Origin: an uncultured Polaribacter sp.
GTDB taxonomy: Bacteria > Bacteroidota > Bacteroidia > Flavobacteriales > Flavobacteriaceae
DNA length: 64,000 bases
Assembly (NCBI GenBank): GCA_947497755.1
Contig: CANMHT010000004.1
Span: forward strand, 209,589-273,588
Direction of reading: 5' to 3'
Numbering within the stretch: position 1 is the stretch's first letter; every line of letters starts with the position of its first letter. Position numbers and translations under genes: made by a program. This document shows positions 51,384-60,950 of the stretch, piece after piece. The notes beneath the pieces are model-generated. The model was given only the letters and a program-made list of their open reading frames with translations, made no database searches and was not told the DNA's origin.

Positions 51384-52214
51384 TTGATCGAACTAAACTC
51401 TTTAATCAAAAAAACATATAAAATAATGGACGTGACCCAAGCACTAAAGAACACAGAAAACTTATTACGTGATTTTATTGCTTTTACATTGAGGAATCGA
51501 TTTAAAGAAAATTGGATTACTAAATGTGGAATATCCAATAATAGAATTGAAATTTGGAAGGAGAGAAAAAAAGTTGAAATAAAACGACAAACTTCTGGAG
51601 TTATTGAAGAAAGGATACTATTCTATGCTGATTTTTATGATTTAAAAACGATTTTAAAAAAACATTGGGGAACAGAATTCTCAAAAGTTTTTGGAGATTG
51701 GAAAACTATGGAAGTTTGGCTCAAGGAAATGGAAAAATTAAGAGACCCTGATGCACACAGACGTGAATTATTACCACATCAAAAGCATTTAATCCTAGGG
51801 ATTTCAGGAGAGATTAGGACACGATTAATAAAATATAGAAGTAAAATGGAGACAAGTGAAGATTTTTTTCCAAGAATTGAAAGCGCAAGAGATAATTTAG
51901 GAAACATAATCACATATGGTCAAAAAAAGAATCAAAACCTATTTAATTTAAAACCTAATGACATTATTGATTTTGTTATAACTGCAAGTGACCCTTTAGG
52001 TGAGAAATTGGAATTTGCAATGACTATAACTGGACAGCATCACAATCCAAAATGGCAAGAAGAAAATACTTTCAATCTCAAAATCAATAACAGTCATATA
52101 AGAATGGGATTTGGAGTAATGTTTTGGTTAAAGAGCCCTAGAAAGTTTCACGCCAAAGATCAGTACGATGACTCAGTCACTTTTGAATATAACATTTTAC
52201 CATCTAAAAACTAA
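51384..52214 (+). CDS. Swt1-like HEPN-domain protein with C-terminal beta domain
   Basis: ENLLRDFI...W; YADFYDLKTILKKHW..F..VF; R-x4-H motif RDPDAH. Confidence 0.65.
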   Translation: MIELNSLIKKTYKIMDVTQALKNTENLLRDFIAFTLRNRFKENWITKCGISNNRIEIWKERKKVEIKRQTSGVIEERILFYADFYDLKTILKKHWGTEFSKVFGDWKTMEVWLKEMEKLRDPDAHRRELLPHQKHLILGISGEIRTRLIKYRSKMETSEDFFPRIESARDNLGNIITYGQKKNQNLFNLKPNDIIDFVITASDPLGEKLEFAMTITGQHHNPKWQEENTFNLKINNSHIRMGFGVMFWLKSPRKFHAKDQYDDSVTFEYNILPSKN

Positions 52215-52489: not shown

Positions 52490-53590
52490 CTATTTATTTA
52501 CGGTAAAAATCTCTTTTAACTGTTTTACCATATTACCATTACCGCCAAGTGTAATCTCACCAATCTTATCAGCAATTTTCTCTACATACTCCATTTCTTT
52601 TAACTTAAACAACATTTCATTGTTTTCCATTAATTTGGCTGTATTTAATAAGCTTCTAGTAGATGCTGTTTCTTCTCTTCTAGTAATAATATTTGCTTGC
52701 GCTCTTTTTTGGGCAATTAAAACTTGATTCATGATTTCTTTCATATCTCCAGTTAAAATCACATCCCTAATTCCGCAGTTAATTACCTGAATCCCTAGTT
52801 GATTCGTATTCTTAGCTACATCTTCAAATACAGCCGTTGCAATACTTTCTTTTTTCTCTAACAACTCATCTAAAGTATAAGCTCCAACATAACTTCTTAA
52901 AGCCAATTGCATTAAAATATATAATTGTTTTTCGTAATCCTTGTTTTCTAACAAGGCTTTTTCAACATTCGTTACTTTATACTGTGTATAAAAGTTAATT
53001 CTAATGTTTGCTTTGTCTTTGGTTAACAATTCTTGACCAGCAATTTCTAATTGTAACTGCCTCATATCAACTTTTGCTATTTTAATAGTTGTATCATTTT
53101 TCCAAAACCTATAAGTTCCTCCTATTAAGGTTTTAGTATAAACATCATCAACTAATAACACTGCTTTTTCATAAGCAGCAACCTCAAAAGTTCTGATATA
53201 TTTAGTCAATTGATTATTACTAAATAAAGCTTTATCAATATTCTCTGTGATATATACTTTACTTCTATCTACTTTGTAAAATTTTCTATCTAAAAAACCT
53301 TTCCAGTACACATAATTACCTGCTTCCAATACATATTTAAAATTGTTTCTTTCGTACACTAATACGATTTCATTATCCTTTACTTCAACAATTTCTAACA
53401 TTGCAGCTAAAGTGCTATCTTTTAATAAAATTTCTATTGCTACAGCAGTATCAAACTGTTTAGTTAAATCATAAATTCTTACTTCTTGATTTAAAAACAA
53501 CCAGTAATTTCCTTCTGTAATCACTTTTTGGTAATCATCTTTTTTGAAAACCAAACCTACTTTTCCTTTGTTTATTCTTACTATTTTCAT
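52490..53590 (-). CDS. Slipin-family SPFH/band-7 protein
   Basis: GQELLTKDK..R.N, IRDVILTGDMKEIMNQV, REETASTRSLLNTAKLME; likely start MKIVRINKG at 53590. Confidence 0.9.
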   Translation of the reverse strand: MKIVRINKGKVGLVFKKDDYQKVITEGNYWLFLNQEVRIYDLTKQFDTAVAIEILLKDSTLAAMLEIVEVKDNEIVLVYERNNFKYVLEAGNYVYWKGFLDRKFYKVDRSKVYITENIDKALFSNNQLTKYIRTFEVAAYEKAVLLVDDVYTKTLIGGTYRFWKNDTTIKIAKVDMRQLQLEIAGQELLTKDKANIRINFYTQYKVTNVEKALLENKDYEKQLYILMQLALRSYVGAYTLDELLEKKESIATAVFEDVAKNTNQLGIQVINCGIRDVILTGDMKEIMNQVLIAQKRAQANIITRREETASTRSLLNTAKLMENNEMLFKLKEMEYVEKIADKIGEITLGGNGNMVKQLKEIFTVNK

Positions 53591-53926
53591 TGTATTTTTT
53601 TTATTAGAATAATTCAACATTTATTACATAATTTCTATCAATAGAAATTGTTTTTCTTAATTAAAAACGGTGCGTCCAAATGCTTAACTAAGCACGGAAA
53701 TAATCAATCTAAAAAAAGGCCGTTACTCATTTTTAAAAATGGATTGATATCGCAATATGAAATCAATTGATTGATAAAAAATCATTACTTTCTATTTTCA
53801 GTATTAAAAACTTCAAGTTCTTTTTTAAGTGTTTATTTAAAAACTCATTTAGAACACATCGTTTTTTTGTTTACCATCAGTTTTATAAGTTGATGAGCTT
53901 ACTTGATGAAATTAGTTCATCTTTCT

Positions 53927-53993
53927 CTAGAACCTAAATCTAGTGTCCTACCAATTAGACGATATCCATTAGGATAGTGGGACTCGAACCCAC
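53927..53993 (-). ncRNA. Circularly permuted tRNA mimic B (T-arm, closed acceptor hairpin, D-arm, full anticodon arm with TAG)
   Basis: gtggg-TTCGAGT-cccac / tatcc-taat-ggata / tcgtctaattggtaggac / ctaga-tttaggt-tctag. Confidence 0.8.
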
Positions 53994-54002
53994 ACATGAA
54001 AC

Positions 54003-54072
54003 TTCTATTGCTCTAACCAGGCTAAGCTACATAACTGCTGTTATGGAAGGATTCGAACCTTCGTACATAGAA
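54003..54072 (-). ncRNA. Circularly permuted tRNA mimic A (YrlA-like)
   Basis: ttctat-gtac-gaagg-TTCGAAT-ccttc-cataac-agca-gttatg-tagcttagcctggttagagc-a-atagaa; every stem pairs. Confidence 0.85.
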
Positions 54073-54318
54073 TTGTGATTATTTTTTGGTGAATAATCGA
54101 AACCTTCAAGTCAAGTTGCATATAACTATCGAATACATAAACTGTACGTAATTATACAATGGTGTTATACAGAAACACTCAACAAGACTTACTTGATATT
54201 TTTAGTTGTTAATGAACTTTTTAAAATGCCCCACTATACTTTATATAGCGAGGACTTTTGCAATTTTCCCACTTCACGTGTTCTTTTTCATAAATACGCT
54301 ACAAAGATTTCACCCTGT

Positions 54319-54337
54319 TACGCAATGATTTTGCGTA
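54319..54337. promoter_or_regulatory. Palindromic operator TACGCAA-N5-TTGCGTA, copy 1
   Basis: Perfect dyad 13 bp from the TTTG of a minus-strand -7-like element (AAtcTTTG, 54302..54309). Confidence 0.8.
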
Positions 54338-54343
54338 CCAAAA

Positions 54344-54871
54344 TTATTTTTCATTTTTTTTCTCTTTTTCACTTACTTTGGTTTTCTTTTTCTTTGGCAT
54401 TTTCCCTTTTATACGTTCTTTAGCTTCAGTAACTACACACAGAATATCTGAACTATACCCATGTATTTTGGCTTGTTTTAAAAAAGATAAGGCTTCTTTA
54501 TACTTTTTTAAATGCTCATATAAGAGCGCTTTCTTTATATATAACATGGCCTTATCCAATCCTTTAACAGTAATTCCAAAATCAATAAAATCTTCTGCCT
54601 CTTTATAATCTTCGTTCCATAACAAAGCATCTATATAATGTGGATATACTTCAAATGCATGTACGTTTTCTGCTAAGGCTTCTTTGTAATACAAAATTGC
54701 TTCTTCGTATTTGTACAATTTTTCTGCATACACTCTCCCCATTAATGTCAATGCCATGGTGTTTTTTTCATCATAAGACAAGGCATAATTCAATGCTTCC
54801 ATTACCTCTTCCAAATCATAAGGGTAATTCTCTAAAGCTTTAAAAACATAATTGTTAATCAATGTTCCCAT
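54344..54871 (-). CDS. TPR-repeat protein
   Basis: ALTLMGRVYAEKLYKYEEAILYYKEAL and related TPR helices; last gene of the rtcB-prfH operon. Confidence 0.85.
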   Translation of the reverse strand: MGTLINNYVFKALENYPYDLEEVMEALNYALSYDEKNTMALTLMGRVYAEKLYKYEEAILYYKEALAENVHAFEVYPHYIDALLWNEDYKEAEDFIDFGITVKGLDKAMLYIKKALLYEHLKKYKEALSFLKQAKIHGYSSDILCVVTEAKERIKGKMPKKKKTKVSEKEKKNEK

Positions 54872-54874
54872 GTT

Positions 54875-55567
54875 TTATTCTAATTGTTTTTTCAAATCAT
54901 TTTTTAATTCGTTTCTTTTTTTCTTAAATGATTTGACTTTCTTTTTCTGTTTAAAATCATTCCCTGTAAATACTCTTACAGGATTTCCTCTTTCTACTAC
55001 CTGATGATTCATACATTGATTCTCAAGTTGCTTACTGGTTTGTTCTCTATTAAAATTGAGTACCTTCTCTTGCAATCTCTTGATGGCAATCTTTTTATTT
55101 TGATGCTGAGATCTGCTATCCATTACCAACACTTGCAATCCAGTTTTTAAGTGTTTTGCTCTAATTGCAGAACTTACTTTATTTACATGCTGGCCACCAG
55201 CTCCAGAACTTCGAATTGCCTGAAATTGAATTTCGTTTTCTTTTATTTCTAAAGAAGTTGCTAGATCAATCTCAAAACAACCAATAAACCAATTTTTACG
55301 TTGGTGGTATTTTCTAAAAGTAGATTTACCAATCCACTGAATAGTACCTAACCAATTATTTAAAAAACTGGCAAGTTGATGTCCATCTAATTGTATACTT
55401 ACCGATTGTACAGTGCCGTTTTGTAATCCGTTTTCTTTGTGTAGCATTGCATATTCAATATTGTTTTGTTGCAATTCTTTTAAAAAGATTTTTAACACTT
55501 TAGCTACTACAAAGGCACATTCTTCTGGGCCTTTACCTGCCGATATTTGTATTACTTTTGTTTCCAT
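54875..55567 (-). CDS. prfH: Peptide chain release factor H
   Basis: QISAGKGPEEC N-terminus, RSSGAGGQHVNK (GGQ), RSQHQNK; adjacent to rtcB. Confidence 0.92.
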   Translation of the reverse strand: METKVIQISAGKGPEECAFVVAKVLKIFLKELQQNNIEYAMLHKENGLQNGTVQSVSIQLDGHQLASFLNNWLGTIQWIGKSTFRKYHQRKNWFIGCFEIDLATSLEIKENEIQFQAIRSSGAGGQHVNKVSSAIRAKHLKTGLQVLVMDSRSQHQNKKIAIKRLQEKVLNFNREQTSKQLENQCMNHQVVERGNPVRVFTGNDFKQKKKVKSFKKKRNELKNDLKKQLE

Positions 55568-55655: not shown

Positions 55656-57047
55656 TTATTTATCCATTCTAACAATTTTAGGAGTAAATGTTCCTAGTAC
55701 TTCTACCAATTCTTGCTGATTAGACATTACCTTTTTTATATTCTTATAAGCCATAGGAGCTTCATCCACTCCTCCTCCAATCAATGTCACATCATTCATT
55801 TTTAATTGATACTTTACATCACTTTTGGTAAACTTCTCTTTACATTTTCTACGCGAATATTTTCTTCCTGCTCCGTGAGAAGCAGATTGTAAACTTTCTG
55901 TATTTCCCAAACCTCTAACAATAAATCCTGGAGCTGTCATAGAACCTGGAATAATTCCTAATTCACCACGCTTTGCAGGCGTAGCTCCTTTTCTATGCAC
56001 AATACATTCTTTACCATTTACCATTTCTTTCCAAGCAAAATTATGATGGTTCTCAATCTTAACTAAAGGCTTTGCTCCTAGTAACTTTGCGATACGTTCA
56101 TGAATATTATCATGACAAGCTTTGGCATAATCACCGGCTAAATTCATAGCCAACCAATATTCTTGTCCGTCATGAGTATTCATATCTAACCAAGCTAAAT
56201 GTTGAACGTTTTTAGGTAAATAACACTGTTTGGTTGCCAAATAAGTATAATGCTTCGCAATATTTGCTCCTAAACTTCTTGAACCACTATGTGATAACAC
56301 GCCTAAATACTCGCCTATTTTTAATCCAAATTCATTGTGCTCTTCTGTAATTGATACCGATCCAAATTCAACAAAATGATTTCCTCCTCCAGAAGTTCCT
56401 AATTGTTTGTACGCTTTATCTTTTAAGCGTTTAATTAATGGAATCTCTGTAAACTCATCTCTATAAAATATTTCATGATCTTGTTTTTTATCATGCGTTT
56501 CTCGCATACCAAACTTTGTATGATTTTTTAAAATATTTTCATATTGATGTTGCTTTCCTTTTAAAAAAGAAACCGGAATTGGATAAACAGTTAAGCACAT
56601 TCTACAACCAATATCAACTCCAACTCCATACGGAATTACCGCATTGTCTGTAGCTAATACGCCACCAATTGGCAAACCATAACCACTATGTGCATCTGGC
56701 ATTAATGCTCCTTGTACCGCAATAGGTAATTTTAAAGCATCGTATAATTGATACTTTGCTTGCTCATCAATTTCATCTTCTCCATAAATAGAAAACGGTA
56801 CTCGTGTATTTCTCAATTGGTGCATTTTAACTGCAACTGGTGTTACCAAACCTTCGGCAACTTTTCCCCAAATCGCATTTCCTTGAAACTTTTCTGGATG
56901 TTTTAATACTTCTTTAGCCTCTTCTAAAATGCGTTCCTTTTTTTCTTTTTTTCTGTATCTATTGATTTGCCCTAAAGCAATATTGATACTATTATTCTTT
57001 GGGAATCCTAATTTTATTAGGTCTTTCCCTTTTAATTTATTTCCCAT
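55656..57047 (-). CDS. rtcB: RtcB-family RNA ligase (PrfH-linked)
   Basis: MPDAHSGYGLPIGG, VGVDIGC, GGGNHF, HSGSR, HHN, HRKGAT, HGAGR. Confidence 0.95.
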   Translation of the reverse strand: MGNKLKGKDLIKLGFPKNNSINIALGQINRYRKKEKKERILEEAKEVLKHPEKFQGNAIWGKVAEGLVTPVAVKMHQLRNTRVPFSIYGEDEIDEQAKYQLYDALKLPIAVQGALMPDAHSGYGLPIGGVLATDNAVIPYGVGVDIGCRMCLTVYPIPVSFLKGKQHQYENILKNHTKFGMRETHDKKQDHEIFYRDEFTEIPLIKRLKDKAYKQLGTSGGGNHFVEFGSVSITEEHNEFGLKIGEYLGVLSHSGSRSLGANIAKHYTYLATKQCYLPKNVQHLAWLDMNTHDGQEYWLAMNLAGDYAKACHDNIHERIAKLLGAKPLVKIENHHNFAWKEMVNGKECIVHRKGATPAKRGELGIIPGSMTAPGFIVRGLGNTESLQSASHGAGRKYSRRKCKEKFTKSDVKYQLKMNDVTLIGGGVDEAPMAYKNIKKVMSNQQELVEVLGTFTPKIVRMDK

Positions 57048-57761: not shown

Positions 57762-58364
57762 TTAATCTGTAGTTGAAGCAACTATACCAATAAAATAATC
57801 TTTTTTATGTGAATAGATTGTCCAATAGAATTCTCCCCACCATTCTTTTCCCTCATCAAAATATGTTGAAAAATCTGTACTCCATTTATACACTTCAATA
57901 AAACTTAAATCACCAAATATTTTTTTAAAAAAATCAAAGAAAAAATCTCCTTCTTCTTTAATGCTTTTCTTAAGTTTTATACCATAAGGTGTTTCAAAAA
58001 AAGCATATCCCAACCCTCCGTTTAAGTATGTTATAGAAACTTCTTTATTAGATTTATGTTTAAAATACTTATTCCAATTTTTCTTTCTCCCTTTTAAGAT
58101 TATTTCTTCTTCATCTATATTAACAAGGTTTCCATAAAATTCACTCAAAGAAATTTTCTCTCCCGAGTTAAAAAAATCTTGTTCTTTTTCTTTAGATAGC
58201 AAATCATTATTAATTGTATTTAACGCAGTATCAAAATGTAAATCTTTACGCTTTAAATCTATATAATCTCTATTTTTAAAAACTTTAAATTCCAAAACAC
58301 CTCTAGCAATTTCAAACTCTTTAATCATTTGTTTTAATTTCTTGTCCAAACATACTTCTTCCAT
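57762..58364 (-). CDS. Hypothetical protein, co-transcribed with the distal rtcB
   Basis: 200-aa ORF with Trp-rich C-terminus WSTDFSTYFDEGKEWWGEFYWTIY...ASTTD. Confidence 0.7.
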   Translation of the reverse strand: MEEVCLDKKLKQMIKEFEIARGVLEFKVFKNRDYIDLKRKDLHFDTALNTINNDLLSKEKEQDFFNSGEKISLSEFYGNLVNIDEEEIILKGRKKNWNKYFKHKSNKEVSITYLNGGLGYAFFETPYGIKLKKSIKEEGDFFFDFFKKIFGDLSFIEVYKWSTDFSTYFDEGKEWWGEFYWTIYSHKKDYFIGIVASTTD

Positions 58365-58381: not shown

Positions 58382-59845
<1,464 letters not shown>

Positions 59846-59853
59846 TTACTTAT

Positions 59854-59872
59854 TACGCAATCTTTTTGCGTA
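59854..59872. promoter_or_regulatory. Palindromic operator TACGCAA-N5-TTGCGTA, copy 2
   Basis: Between the divergent rtcB and WYL genes; same 13-bp spacing to a -7-like TTTG as copy 1. Confidence 0.8.
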
Positions 59873-59909: not shown

Positions 59910-60950
59910 ATGGCTTCAAATAAAAATGCGCTTATCAGATACAAAACTATAGACCAATGTCTACGAAACACAATGAAAAAGTGGACATTAGATGATTTAA
60001 TTGAAGCCTGTTCTGATGCCTTGTATGAATATGAAGGGAAAGATGTATATGTTAGTAAACGCACCATTCAATTAGACATTCAATTGATGCGTAGCGATAA
60101 ATTAGGATACAACGCTCCTATTGAAGTTTATGATAGAAAATACTATAGGTATGGAGAAAATGGATACAGCATAAAAAATATTCCTGTAACCGATAATGAC
60201 ATAAAAATTATGAATGATGCCATTCAAATGCTTCGTCAGTTTAAAGACTTTTCTTTATTTCAAGAAATGGATGGAGTACTACAACGGCTAGAAGATTCTG
60301 TTTATTCATCGCAAAAAAATAATCGTCCAATTATTCACTTAGAAAAGAATGAACAACTGAAAGGTTTAAAATACATTGATCCTATTTATGAAGCTATTCA
60401 GAATAAAAAAGTAATCAAAATTACATATCAATCTTTTAAAGCTCGAAATCCAAGTGATATAATTGTGCATCCGCAACTATTAAAAGAATATAACAATCGA
60501 TGGTTTTTATTAAGTATTACCAAAAAAAGACAATTTATAACTTTAGCACTAGATAGAATGTCTAATATCATTTATGAAGAAGCCGCAGAATATGATGATT
60601 TAAAAATTGATGGTGATACTTATTATAGAAATGTTATTGGAGCTACAGTATCAAATTCACGTGCTGAGCGCATTCAATTTTGGATTGACAAAGAAAACGC
60701 TCCTTATGTCATAACCAAACCTTTCCATAAAAGTCAACGCCTAATTAAACATACCAACGATGGAGTGATTTTTAATATTCTAGTGCAAATAAATTTTGAA
60801 TTAGAACGTAAAATCTTAGGGTTTGGCGATGCTATTGAAGTTCAAAAACCTCTGCGATTACGAAAACGTATGATTGAAAAATTAAATAAATCTATTAATA
60901 GATATTCTCTAACTGATAACGAAACCCAACAACTAAAAAATCCGTCTTAA
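59910..60950 (+). CDS. WYL-domain transcriptional regulator (wHTH-WYL-WCX)
   Basis: VSKRTIQLDIQLMR HTH; ITYQSF, HPQLLKEYNNRWFLL, LALDRM WYL motifs. Confidence 0.92.
   Translation: MASNKNALIRYKTIDQCLRNTMKKWTLDDLIEACSDALYEYEGKDVYVSKRTIQLDIQLMRSDKLGYNAPIEVYDRKYYRYGENGYSIKNIPVTDNDIKIMNDAIQMLRQFKDFSLFQEMDGVLQRLEDSVYSSQKNNRPIIHLEKNEQLKGLKYIDPIYEAIQNKKVIKITYQSFKARNPSDIIVHPQLLKEYNNRWFLLSITKKRQFITLALDRMSNIIYEEAAEYDDLKIDGDTYYRNVIGATVSNSRAERIQFWIDKENAPYVITKPFHKSQRLIKHTNDGVIFNILVQINFELERKILGFGDAIEVQKPLRLRKRMIEKLNKSINRYSLTDNETQQLKNPS

Follow-up and report, generated by a model that had tools for sequence, protein, structure and literature searches.

A Band-7-associated RNA of an uncultured Polaribacter contains a circularly permuted, sealed tRNA-Leu(UAG)-like module with a canonical anticodon loop

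Burroughs and Aravind (2016) predicted a tRNA-like RNA associated with Band-7 genes (b7a-tRNA); their prediction is quoted in bioRxiv 10.1101/312249, where the RNA is described as strongly resembling authentic tRNA and as unvalidated as of 2018. According to the same quoted text, YrlA-type RNA can also adjoin Band-7, and Band-7 is proposed there as an alternative scaffold. YrlA itself is a Ro60-bound tRNA mimic of permuted order with no anticodon loop (PMC4201824; bioRxiv 10.1101/312249); more generally, Y RNAs tether Ro60 to effectors (bioRxiv 10.1101/312249). A full-text search for the term b7a-tRNA returned no other paper, and Rfam holds no such family. Here we analyse a stretch of 64,000 nucleotides from an uncultured Polaribacter sp. 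(contig CANMHT010000004.1, positions 209,589 to 273,588; the window), in which a tRNA-like non-coding RNA lies beside an SPFH/Band-7 gene in an island of RNA-repair genes that includes RtcB. As far as the quotation allows comparison, the locus matches the predicted Band-7-associated tRNA context: the RNA adjoins a Band-7/SPFH gene, and RtcB is encoded in the neighbourhood, the latter being established for this window. The quoted text is silent on circular permutation, on chains of two to five modules and on anticodon turnover, all of which are documented below. The 2016 prediction gains a concrete anatomy, that of chained circularly permuted tRNAs with sealed acceptors, in which at least one module retains a fully canonical anticodon loop whose triplet shifts quickly between close relatives. 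We concentrate on that module, unit B, which follows a first permuted mimic, unit A, on the minus strand.

Unit B is a circular permutation of tRNA-Leu(UAG) whose opening falls where the variable arm meets the T arm. The chain runs through the T arm, the 3′ acceptor strand, a tetraloop, the 5′ acceptor strand, the D arm, the anticodon arm and the variable arm, with the following parts:

53977..53993, minus strand: T arm, GTGGG-TTCGAGT-CCCAC, its T loop canonical
53963..53976, minus strand: sealed acceptor stem, TATCC-TAAT-GGATA, 5 bp closed by a tetraloop
53962..53961, minus strand: U8/C9 (TC), the dinucleotide between acceptor and D arm
53960..53945, minus strand: D arm, GTCT-AATTGGTA-GGAC
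53944, minus strand: A26, a single A
53943..53927, minus strand: anticodon arm, CTAGA-TTTAGGT-TCTAG, a 5-bp stem and a 7-nt loop
53936..53934, minus strand: anticodon TAG, with G37 at 53933
53905..53926, minus strand: long variable arm, AGAAA followed by the hairpin GATGAA-CTAAT-TTCATC, in the class-II position

The full module measures 90 nt from T arm to variable arm, ending at 53905, and the minimum-free-energy fold of the 329-nt RNA recovers every one of its hairpins. An earlier reading of the locus from its letters (the sequence-only reading) had proposed a T arm, a closed acceptor, a D arm, an A and an anticodon arm on the minus strand, and on re-reading the sequence each lies where it was placed. 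That reading had the unit end at its 3′ side with the anticodon arm; this has to be amended, since the variable arm, AGAAA and a hairpin (53926..53905), comes after it. The exposed Leu(TAG)-type loop by which it distinguished unit B from unit A is indeed there, as a self-contained 5-bp stem and 7-nt loop. At the variable-arm site of relatives other hairpins are found, and a further T arm often comes next.

The permutation was recognized by ARAGORN at default thresholds, which called the 90-nt module tRNA-Leu(tag) when the sequence was circularised or cut in the acceptor loop. No tRNA was called in the linear 90-nt module, and the linear 64-kb window yielded 0 tRNA and 0 transfer-messenger RNA (tmRNA). 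In circular-mode controls, neither 2000 dinucleotide shuffles nor ~3000 random pieces of 90 nt drawn from the window yielded any call (0 in each set). The variable arm is required for the class-II tRNA-Leu call on the de-permuted module. At gathering thresholds, Rfam gave no matches in the whole window; with thresholds relaxed, its tRNA model matched at 27.5 bits over 53905-53960, a stretch that takes in unit B's D arm, anticodon arm and variable hairpin, and gave another match at 24.9 bits, against a threshold of 29. The YrlA model (RF02553) left unit B unmatched even under relaxed thresholds. The genuine tRNA-Leu(UAG) of this genome, at C2:609774, has the identical anticodon stem (CTAGA/TCTAG), with the loop CTTAGGA versus TTTAGGT in unit B. 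The T arm of unit B is near-identical to that of the genome's tRNA-Leu(CAA), which its D arm also resembles, and in relatives the D arm takes the class-II Leu form GGCGGA(A/G)TGGT..ACGC. Features of a working tRNA are absent: unit B forms no linear cloverleaf and has no open 7-bp acceptor with a free 3′ end for CCA. The earlier description of unit B as a permuted, non-chargeable tRNA mimic whose anticodon arm is of genuine Leu(UAG) type is supported.

Three other identities were considered for this part of the RNA and set aside. A two-piece (permuted) tmRNA was rejected on the ARAGORN result and on an Rfam tmRNA score of only 12.4 bits against a 47-bit threshold, for a match that overlies unit A. 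An ordinary cloverleaf spanning the junctions between modules was rejected because 0 of 71 junctions pair fully, with a mean pairing of 35%. A coding role was likewise discarded, as no open reading frame of at least 60 amino acids covers unit B and the overlapping frames have 26-56 codons' worth of residues.

Homologues of the RNA were sought in 267 Tenacibaculum genomes and found in 52, in a single copy each. We aligned 33 Tenacibaculum orthologues of unit B with its four helices specified and used 500 shuffles as a control. Of the helix cells, 99.1% are paired, compensatory double changes occur at 10 of 18 pairs and in all four helices, and none of the 500 shuffles came up to the values observed. 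The T arm keeps 5/5 pairs, with a compensatory change at one of them; the acceptor stem has compensatory changes at 4/5 pairs and varies in length between 5 and 8 bp among relatives; the anticodon stem shows double changes at 3/5 pairs, with 98.8% of cells paired. Invariant positions are U8, A14, G18 and U33, nucleotides that hold together the tRNA elbow and the anticodon U-turn. Judged from the alignment, selection acts on the structure of unit B. Conservation of the anticodon-arm hairpin in related genomes had been set beforehand as one test of the sequence-only reading, and the hairpin is conserved, with covariation, in the 33 orthologues.

The loop of the anticodon arm combines rigid and fast-changing positions. 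Its length is 7 nt in every orthologue. In column-by-column counts, 10 changes fall on position 35, a joint maximum for the module, and 0 on U33, while position 37 switches only between G and A and is always a purine. When changes were mapped on a tree of 35 genomes built from flanking sequence, the unit B anticodon proved to have changed at least 13 times, even between near-identical loci; the triplets found are UAG, UCG, UGG, GAA, GAU, GUU and AAG. ARAGORN in circular mode, applied to modules from 46 related loci, called Leu(tag), Arg(tcg), Ile(gat), Phe(gaa) and Asn(gtt), and also Met(cat), Leu(caa), Leu(cag) and a few odd calls; in linear mode none of these modules was called. A single RNA can bear several different anticodons, two or three per RNA. 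The check asked for by the sequence-only reading thus has its answer: unit number and anticodon identity both vary between genomes. The neighbouring positions follow a natural pattern. Among 51 distinct arms (L011-L172), taken as they stand and uncorrected for shared ancestry, G36 is accompanied by G37 in 18/20 and A/U36 by A37 in 29/31. We also sought an internal specifier and found no column elsewhere in the RNA that is complementary to the anticodon's variable position 35, so that the unit B loop is probably free of pairing within the RNA. As a separate observation, C36 occurs in 0/51 distinct mimic arms (ancestry again uncorrected), and no GNN codons (Val, Ala, Asp, Glu, Gly) would be read.

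With respect to YrlA, unit B shares the permuted order of T arm, sealed acceptor and D arm as well as the tertiary determinants. However, YrlA has no anticodon loop and its ends form a Ro60-binding stem, whereas unit B, opened at the variable/T junction, has both a full anticodon arm and a long variable arm, is not matched by the YrlA model and resides in a genome without Ro60. No Ro60/Rsr (TROVE) gene lies nearby, and no Ro60/TROVE domain was found in the 99.6%-complete genome by a search that detected it in control genomes. YrlA is encoded beside rtcB in many bacteria. The permuted tRNA genes of Cyanidioschyzon merolae resemble unit B in that the 3′ part precedes the 5′ part and the primary transcript has a closed acceptor, but they mature through a circular intermediate to chargeable tRNAs. 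Unit B has the permuted order and cannot mature in this way, because its acceptor has 5 bp and a 4-nt loop, in place of a 7-bp stem, and is followed by no discriminator or CCA. In Anabaena, stress-induced operonic tRNAs are co-regulated with rtcB and have been proposed as a sponge for toxin RNases (PMC8421152). The likeness lies in extra tRNA-type RNAs made with RtcB under translational stress, some of which are cleaved (PMC8421152); the Anabaena tRNAs are, however, conventional, chargeable and arranged in long arrays, whereas here sealed permuted mimics are fused into one RNA. The skipping-rope, DUF2693-FD and salivarius-1 families of tRNA mimics (2026 preprint) proved to be other RNAs, and the transcriptome paper on Flavobacterium psychrophilum contains nothing on this locus.

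Unit B is the second of the L-shaped modules in an RNA of at least ~330 nt, comprising a 5′ domain of ~125 nt, unit A, further permuted modules (one to three of them after unit A, in the Tenacibaculum loci) and a 3′ hairpin. Across loci the distance from 5′ anchor to 3′ anchor ranges from 245 to 460 nt. Apart from unit B, the parts in the window are:

54075..54200, minus strand: conserved 5′ domain, beginning AATATCAAGTAAGTCTTGTTG, with 76-88% identity across 52 Tenacibaculum genomes
54000..54074, minus strand: unit A, a permuted tRNA mimic that resembles YrlA and has no anticodon loop
parts of unit A, minus strand: closing stem AATTCTAT / ATAG-A-AGTT, T arm, acceptor CATAAC-AGCA-GTTATG, D arm
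53875..53897, minus strand: conserved 3′ hairpin, CTCATCA-ACTTATAAAAC-TGATG

Unit A scores 30.3 bits (E 2.6e-4) against Rfam YrlA RF02553, below the gathering threshold of 69 bits, and shares with YrlA the absent anticodon loop and ends that close an anticodon-like stem; the closing stem CTAT/ATAG becomes CTAA/TTAG in loci L035 and L040. The spacing of about 9 nt that the sequence-only reading gave between the two units shrinks to a 6-nt linker (TCATGT), since the closing stem of unit A reaches 54000. Its view that A and B are not recent tandem duplicates holds: their sequences differ, and the unit-B model gives A 25.6 bits compared with 75.6 for B. A mismatch-tolerant pattern located the 3′ hairpin downstream of the module chain in 46/52 loci. 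Between this hairpin and the Band-7 start lies a hairpin-like element, GTGTT..AATGAGTTTTT..AAACAC (53829-53857, minus strand), which is conserved at the same place in L002, L003, L006 and L007. The conserved RNA may extend beyond the ~330 nt analysed.

Such modules also occur beyond Tenacibaculum and the present window. A close relative of the Band-7 protein is encoded at 400 Flavobacteriaceae loci; in the best 80 of these 400, a crude parse found two to four modules of T arm and sealed hairpin upstream of Band-7 in 75/80 and at least one canonical anticodon arm in 70/80. A class-wide search with the unit-B covariance model was swamped by genuine tRNA genes lying close together, in which the T arm of one gene and the D and anticodon arms of the next match together, the artefact against which Chen et al. 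had cautioned (PMC4201824). We therefore kept only compact matches of 65-75 nt beside Band-7, and with this restriction a further six families of the class have unit-B-type modules beside Band-7. Three of these six share the UAG loop, suggesting Leu(UAG) as the ancestral form.

The genes around the RNA and two copies of a candidate regulatory dyad are as follows:

51384-52214, plus strand: Swt1-like HEPN-domain gene, convergent with Band-7 (E 1.3e-5, just under the Pfam cut-off)
52490..53620, minus strand: SPFH/Band-7 gene, directly downstream of the RNA (Pfam Band_7, E 1.9e-27)
54320..54336: dyad ACGCA-N7-TGCGT, a candidate operator, upstream of the RNA
54344-54871, minus strand: TPR gene, upstream of the RNA (Pfam)
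54875-55567, minus strand: PrfH gene (NCBIfam release_prfH, 226.6 bits, cut-off 166.65)
55656-57047, minus strand: RtcB gene (Pfam)
57762-58364, minus strand: gene of 200 amino acids between two RtcB-family genes, with no Pfam or NCBIfam match
58382-59839, minus strand: distal RtcB-like gene (Pfam)
59855..59871: second copy of the dyad, between the WYL gene and the distal rtcB
59910-60950, plus strand: WYL/WCX regulator gene, divergent (Pfam)

On the minus strand the order is thus RtcB-like, 200-amino-acid gene, RtcB, PrfH, TPR, RNA and SPFH/Band-7, with two RtcB-family genes within 6.5 kb of the RNA in this window. Ends left by HEPN RNases can be joined by RtcB. Hydropathy in the Band-7 protein reaches at most 1.5, with no transmembrane segment. 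Its pairing with the RNA is fixed, the Band-7 gene lying downstream of the RNA in 52/52 Tenacibaculum loci. We found no terminator-like site between the RNA and the Band-7 start, so the two are probably co-transcribed. The dyad occurs twice in the 64 kb, against 0.025 copies expected by chance, and its exact form lies upstream of the RNA in 14/49 related loci. Because the operator-like dyad is common to the RNA and the WYL/rtcB region, it suggests that the RNA is made after induction, together with the repair genes. Similar dyads stand ahead of the RNA in distant families as well (L078, L090), and in L090 a divergent upstream frame resembles, by eye, the N terminus of a WYL-type regulator.

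Unit B is predicted to be neither charged nor delivered to the ribosome, and yet it appears to keep every determinant of the tertiary fold along with an authentic anticodon loop. As charging is lost and the anticodon stem-loop retained, the factors that unit B engages should be limited to those reading the tRNA body or the loop. We therefore favour, at a probability of roughly 0.5, a reading in which unit B is a non-chargeable surrogate tRNA, or bait, for loop-directed enzymes within an SPFH-RNA particle. The RNA would be transcribed and bound by the SPFH protein, and the particle would hold the surrogate so as to present its genuine anticodon stem-loop. The enzymes targeted would be ribotoxins that cut anticodons, together with the RtcB ligase, which would reseal the resulting 2′,3′-cyclic-phosphate and 5′-OH ends, so that modules would be cleaved and religated. 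On this reading, selection would hold the shape of the loop and leave the triplet free, so that different anticodons are displayed by different genomes and by the modules of one RNA. A decoy or sensor function, already put forward in the sequence-only reading, is plausible; the natural form of the loop (7 nt, U33, purine 37 and the 36/37 coupling), the multiple anticodons and the presence of RtcB in the island all speak for it. Were the bait or surrogate reading true, it would represent a new bacterial means to detect or blunt tRNA-cutting toxins and would account for the joint occurrence of RtcB, PrfH and a soluble SPFH protein.

Several points weigh against this reading. The anticodon changes at about the rate of positions in the acceptor and D loops, so that the triplet has to be counted as unconstrained. 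Diversifying selection on the anticodon was accordingly considered and not demonstrated, as a lack of constraint fits the data equally well. Moreover, a Leu- or Ile-type stem stays in place when the anticodon changes, so that the new cognate tRNA does not have its anticodon stem-loop copied in full by the arm. Both the turnover of the triplet, which is like that of unconstrained loops, and the failure of the stem to follow the cognate tRNA argue against a decoy specific for tRNA-Leu. The 36/37 statistics carry no correction for common descent, and unit A, like the characterised YrlA Y RNAs, does without an anticodon loop. A single mRNA leader would probably also be too scarce to act as a stoichiometric sponge against the cellular tRNA pool. 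Finally, the RNA lies behind an operator-like dyad that also marks the WYL/rtcB promoter region, which speaks against a pre-positioned sensor; induction would fit an on-demand decoy or cofactor better than a sensor already in place.

An extended form of the bait reading, which we regard as unlikely, takes the RNA to be a polyvalent and evolvable sentinel whose modules bait the anticodon nucleases of phages or competitors, with anticodon turnover tracking the toxins met. Cutting of a bait within the SPFH particle would either switch on the WYL-controlled RtcB/PrfH response through the cyclic-phosphate ends or soak up the toxin, and RtcB would reseal the cut bait for reuse. The minimum of 13 anticodon changes in a single genus and the two or three anticodons per RNA would, on such a scheme, follow the toxins of each lineage.

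The main rival to the surrogate or bait reading is a generic scaffold or tether resembling Y RNAs, in which the modules only serve to attach some tRNA-binding partner, such as RtcB, a modification enzyme or PNPase, to the SPFH assembly and the loop is merely a stable U-turn cap whose sequence is meaningless. We consider this possible, though somewhat unlikely. It agrees with the YrlA-like character of unit A and with the quoted statements that Y RNAs tether Ro60 and that Band-7 may be an alternative scaffold (bioRxiv 10.1101/312249), with a triplet that evolves like unconstrained positions, and with an acceptor stem whose length is free between 5 and 8 bp. A plain cap, however, needs neither a 7-nt loop nor an invariant U33, a purine at 37 or natural coupling of 36 to 37, and at least one anticodon-arm module is kept in 70/80 of the crudely parsed loci. 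Even if the loop were only a structural cap, the RNA would still represent a large and widespread structured family missing from Rfam. The unbroken RNA-gene adjacency (52/52) and the lack of a terminator-like site before the Band-7 start would also suit a cis-acting leader of the SPFH mRNA, whose modules would govern how stable the Band-7 message is, how it is processed (by RNase P or RNase Z, for instance) or how it is translated; there is a precedent in the YrlA of Mycobacterium smegmatis, which has a 7-bp acceptor stem and is cut by RNase P (bioRxiv 10.1101/312249). The last module, however, is ~280 nt from the start codon, the acceptor here has only 5 bp, and most such stems are expected to serve poorly as RNase P substrates (bioRxiv 10.1101/312249). 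Control in cis would by itself also leave the full set of tRNA tertiary determinants and the canonical anticodon loops unexplained, and we hold it to be quite improbable.

Two further explanations have little to recommend them. Unit B might be the precursor of a working tRNA in the manner of Cyanidioschyzon, to be excised, circularised by RtcB and opened in the acceptor loop to yield a linear tRNA-Leu. The permuted order is the correct one, ARAGORN accepts the de-permuted sequence, RtcB is encoded nearby, and the possibility has been raised for YrlA RNAs (bioRxiv 10.1101/312249). Yet a 7-bp stem, a discriminator base and CCA do not fit into a 5-bp stem with a 4-nt loop; stems of relatives range from 5 to 8 bp, a normal tRNA-Leu(UAG) is already present in the genome, and no splicing-type endonuclease has been reported in bacteria (bioRxiv 10.1101/312249), all of which makes a precursor very improbable. 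Hardly credible, and slightly less so than the precursor, is a non-functional relic, consisting of decayed tandem tRNA genes or of tRNA 3′ fragments left by the integration of islands. Several related loci do have clusters of tRNA genes just upstream of the RNA, and tandem tRNA genes match the unit-B model in part, but the compensatory changes in all four helices already contradict decay, the RNA is a single copy at a fixed place in 52 genomes and is conserved across families of the class, and the scars of att sites cannot yield sealed acceptor hairpins.

PrfH and TPR genes precede the RNA in only 27/52 loci. Among 15 inspected loci that lack them, several have a PF04308 gene and/or tRNA-gene-like sequence in their place. 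The PF04308 gene (~165 amino acids, RNase H-like, YkuK/DUF458, E 2e-35) stands just before the RNA in L043, on the reverse strand, and also in L023, L026, L030, L035, L042, L047 and L055; none was found in the window's own genome. In other families of the class, arrays of 3-11 tRNA genes of conventional appearance precede the mimic RNA and Band-7 directly upstream on the same strand, at 36-1141 in L069, 1931-3039 in L074, 1453-2813 in L064 and 1697-2198 in L066. These arrays may supply additional tRNA copies as part of the same response.

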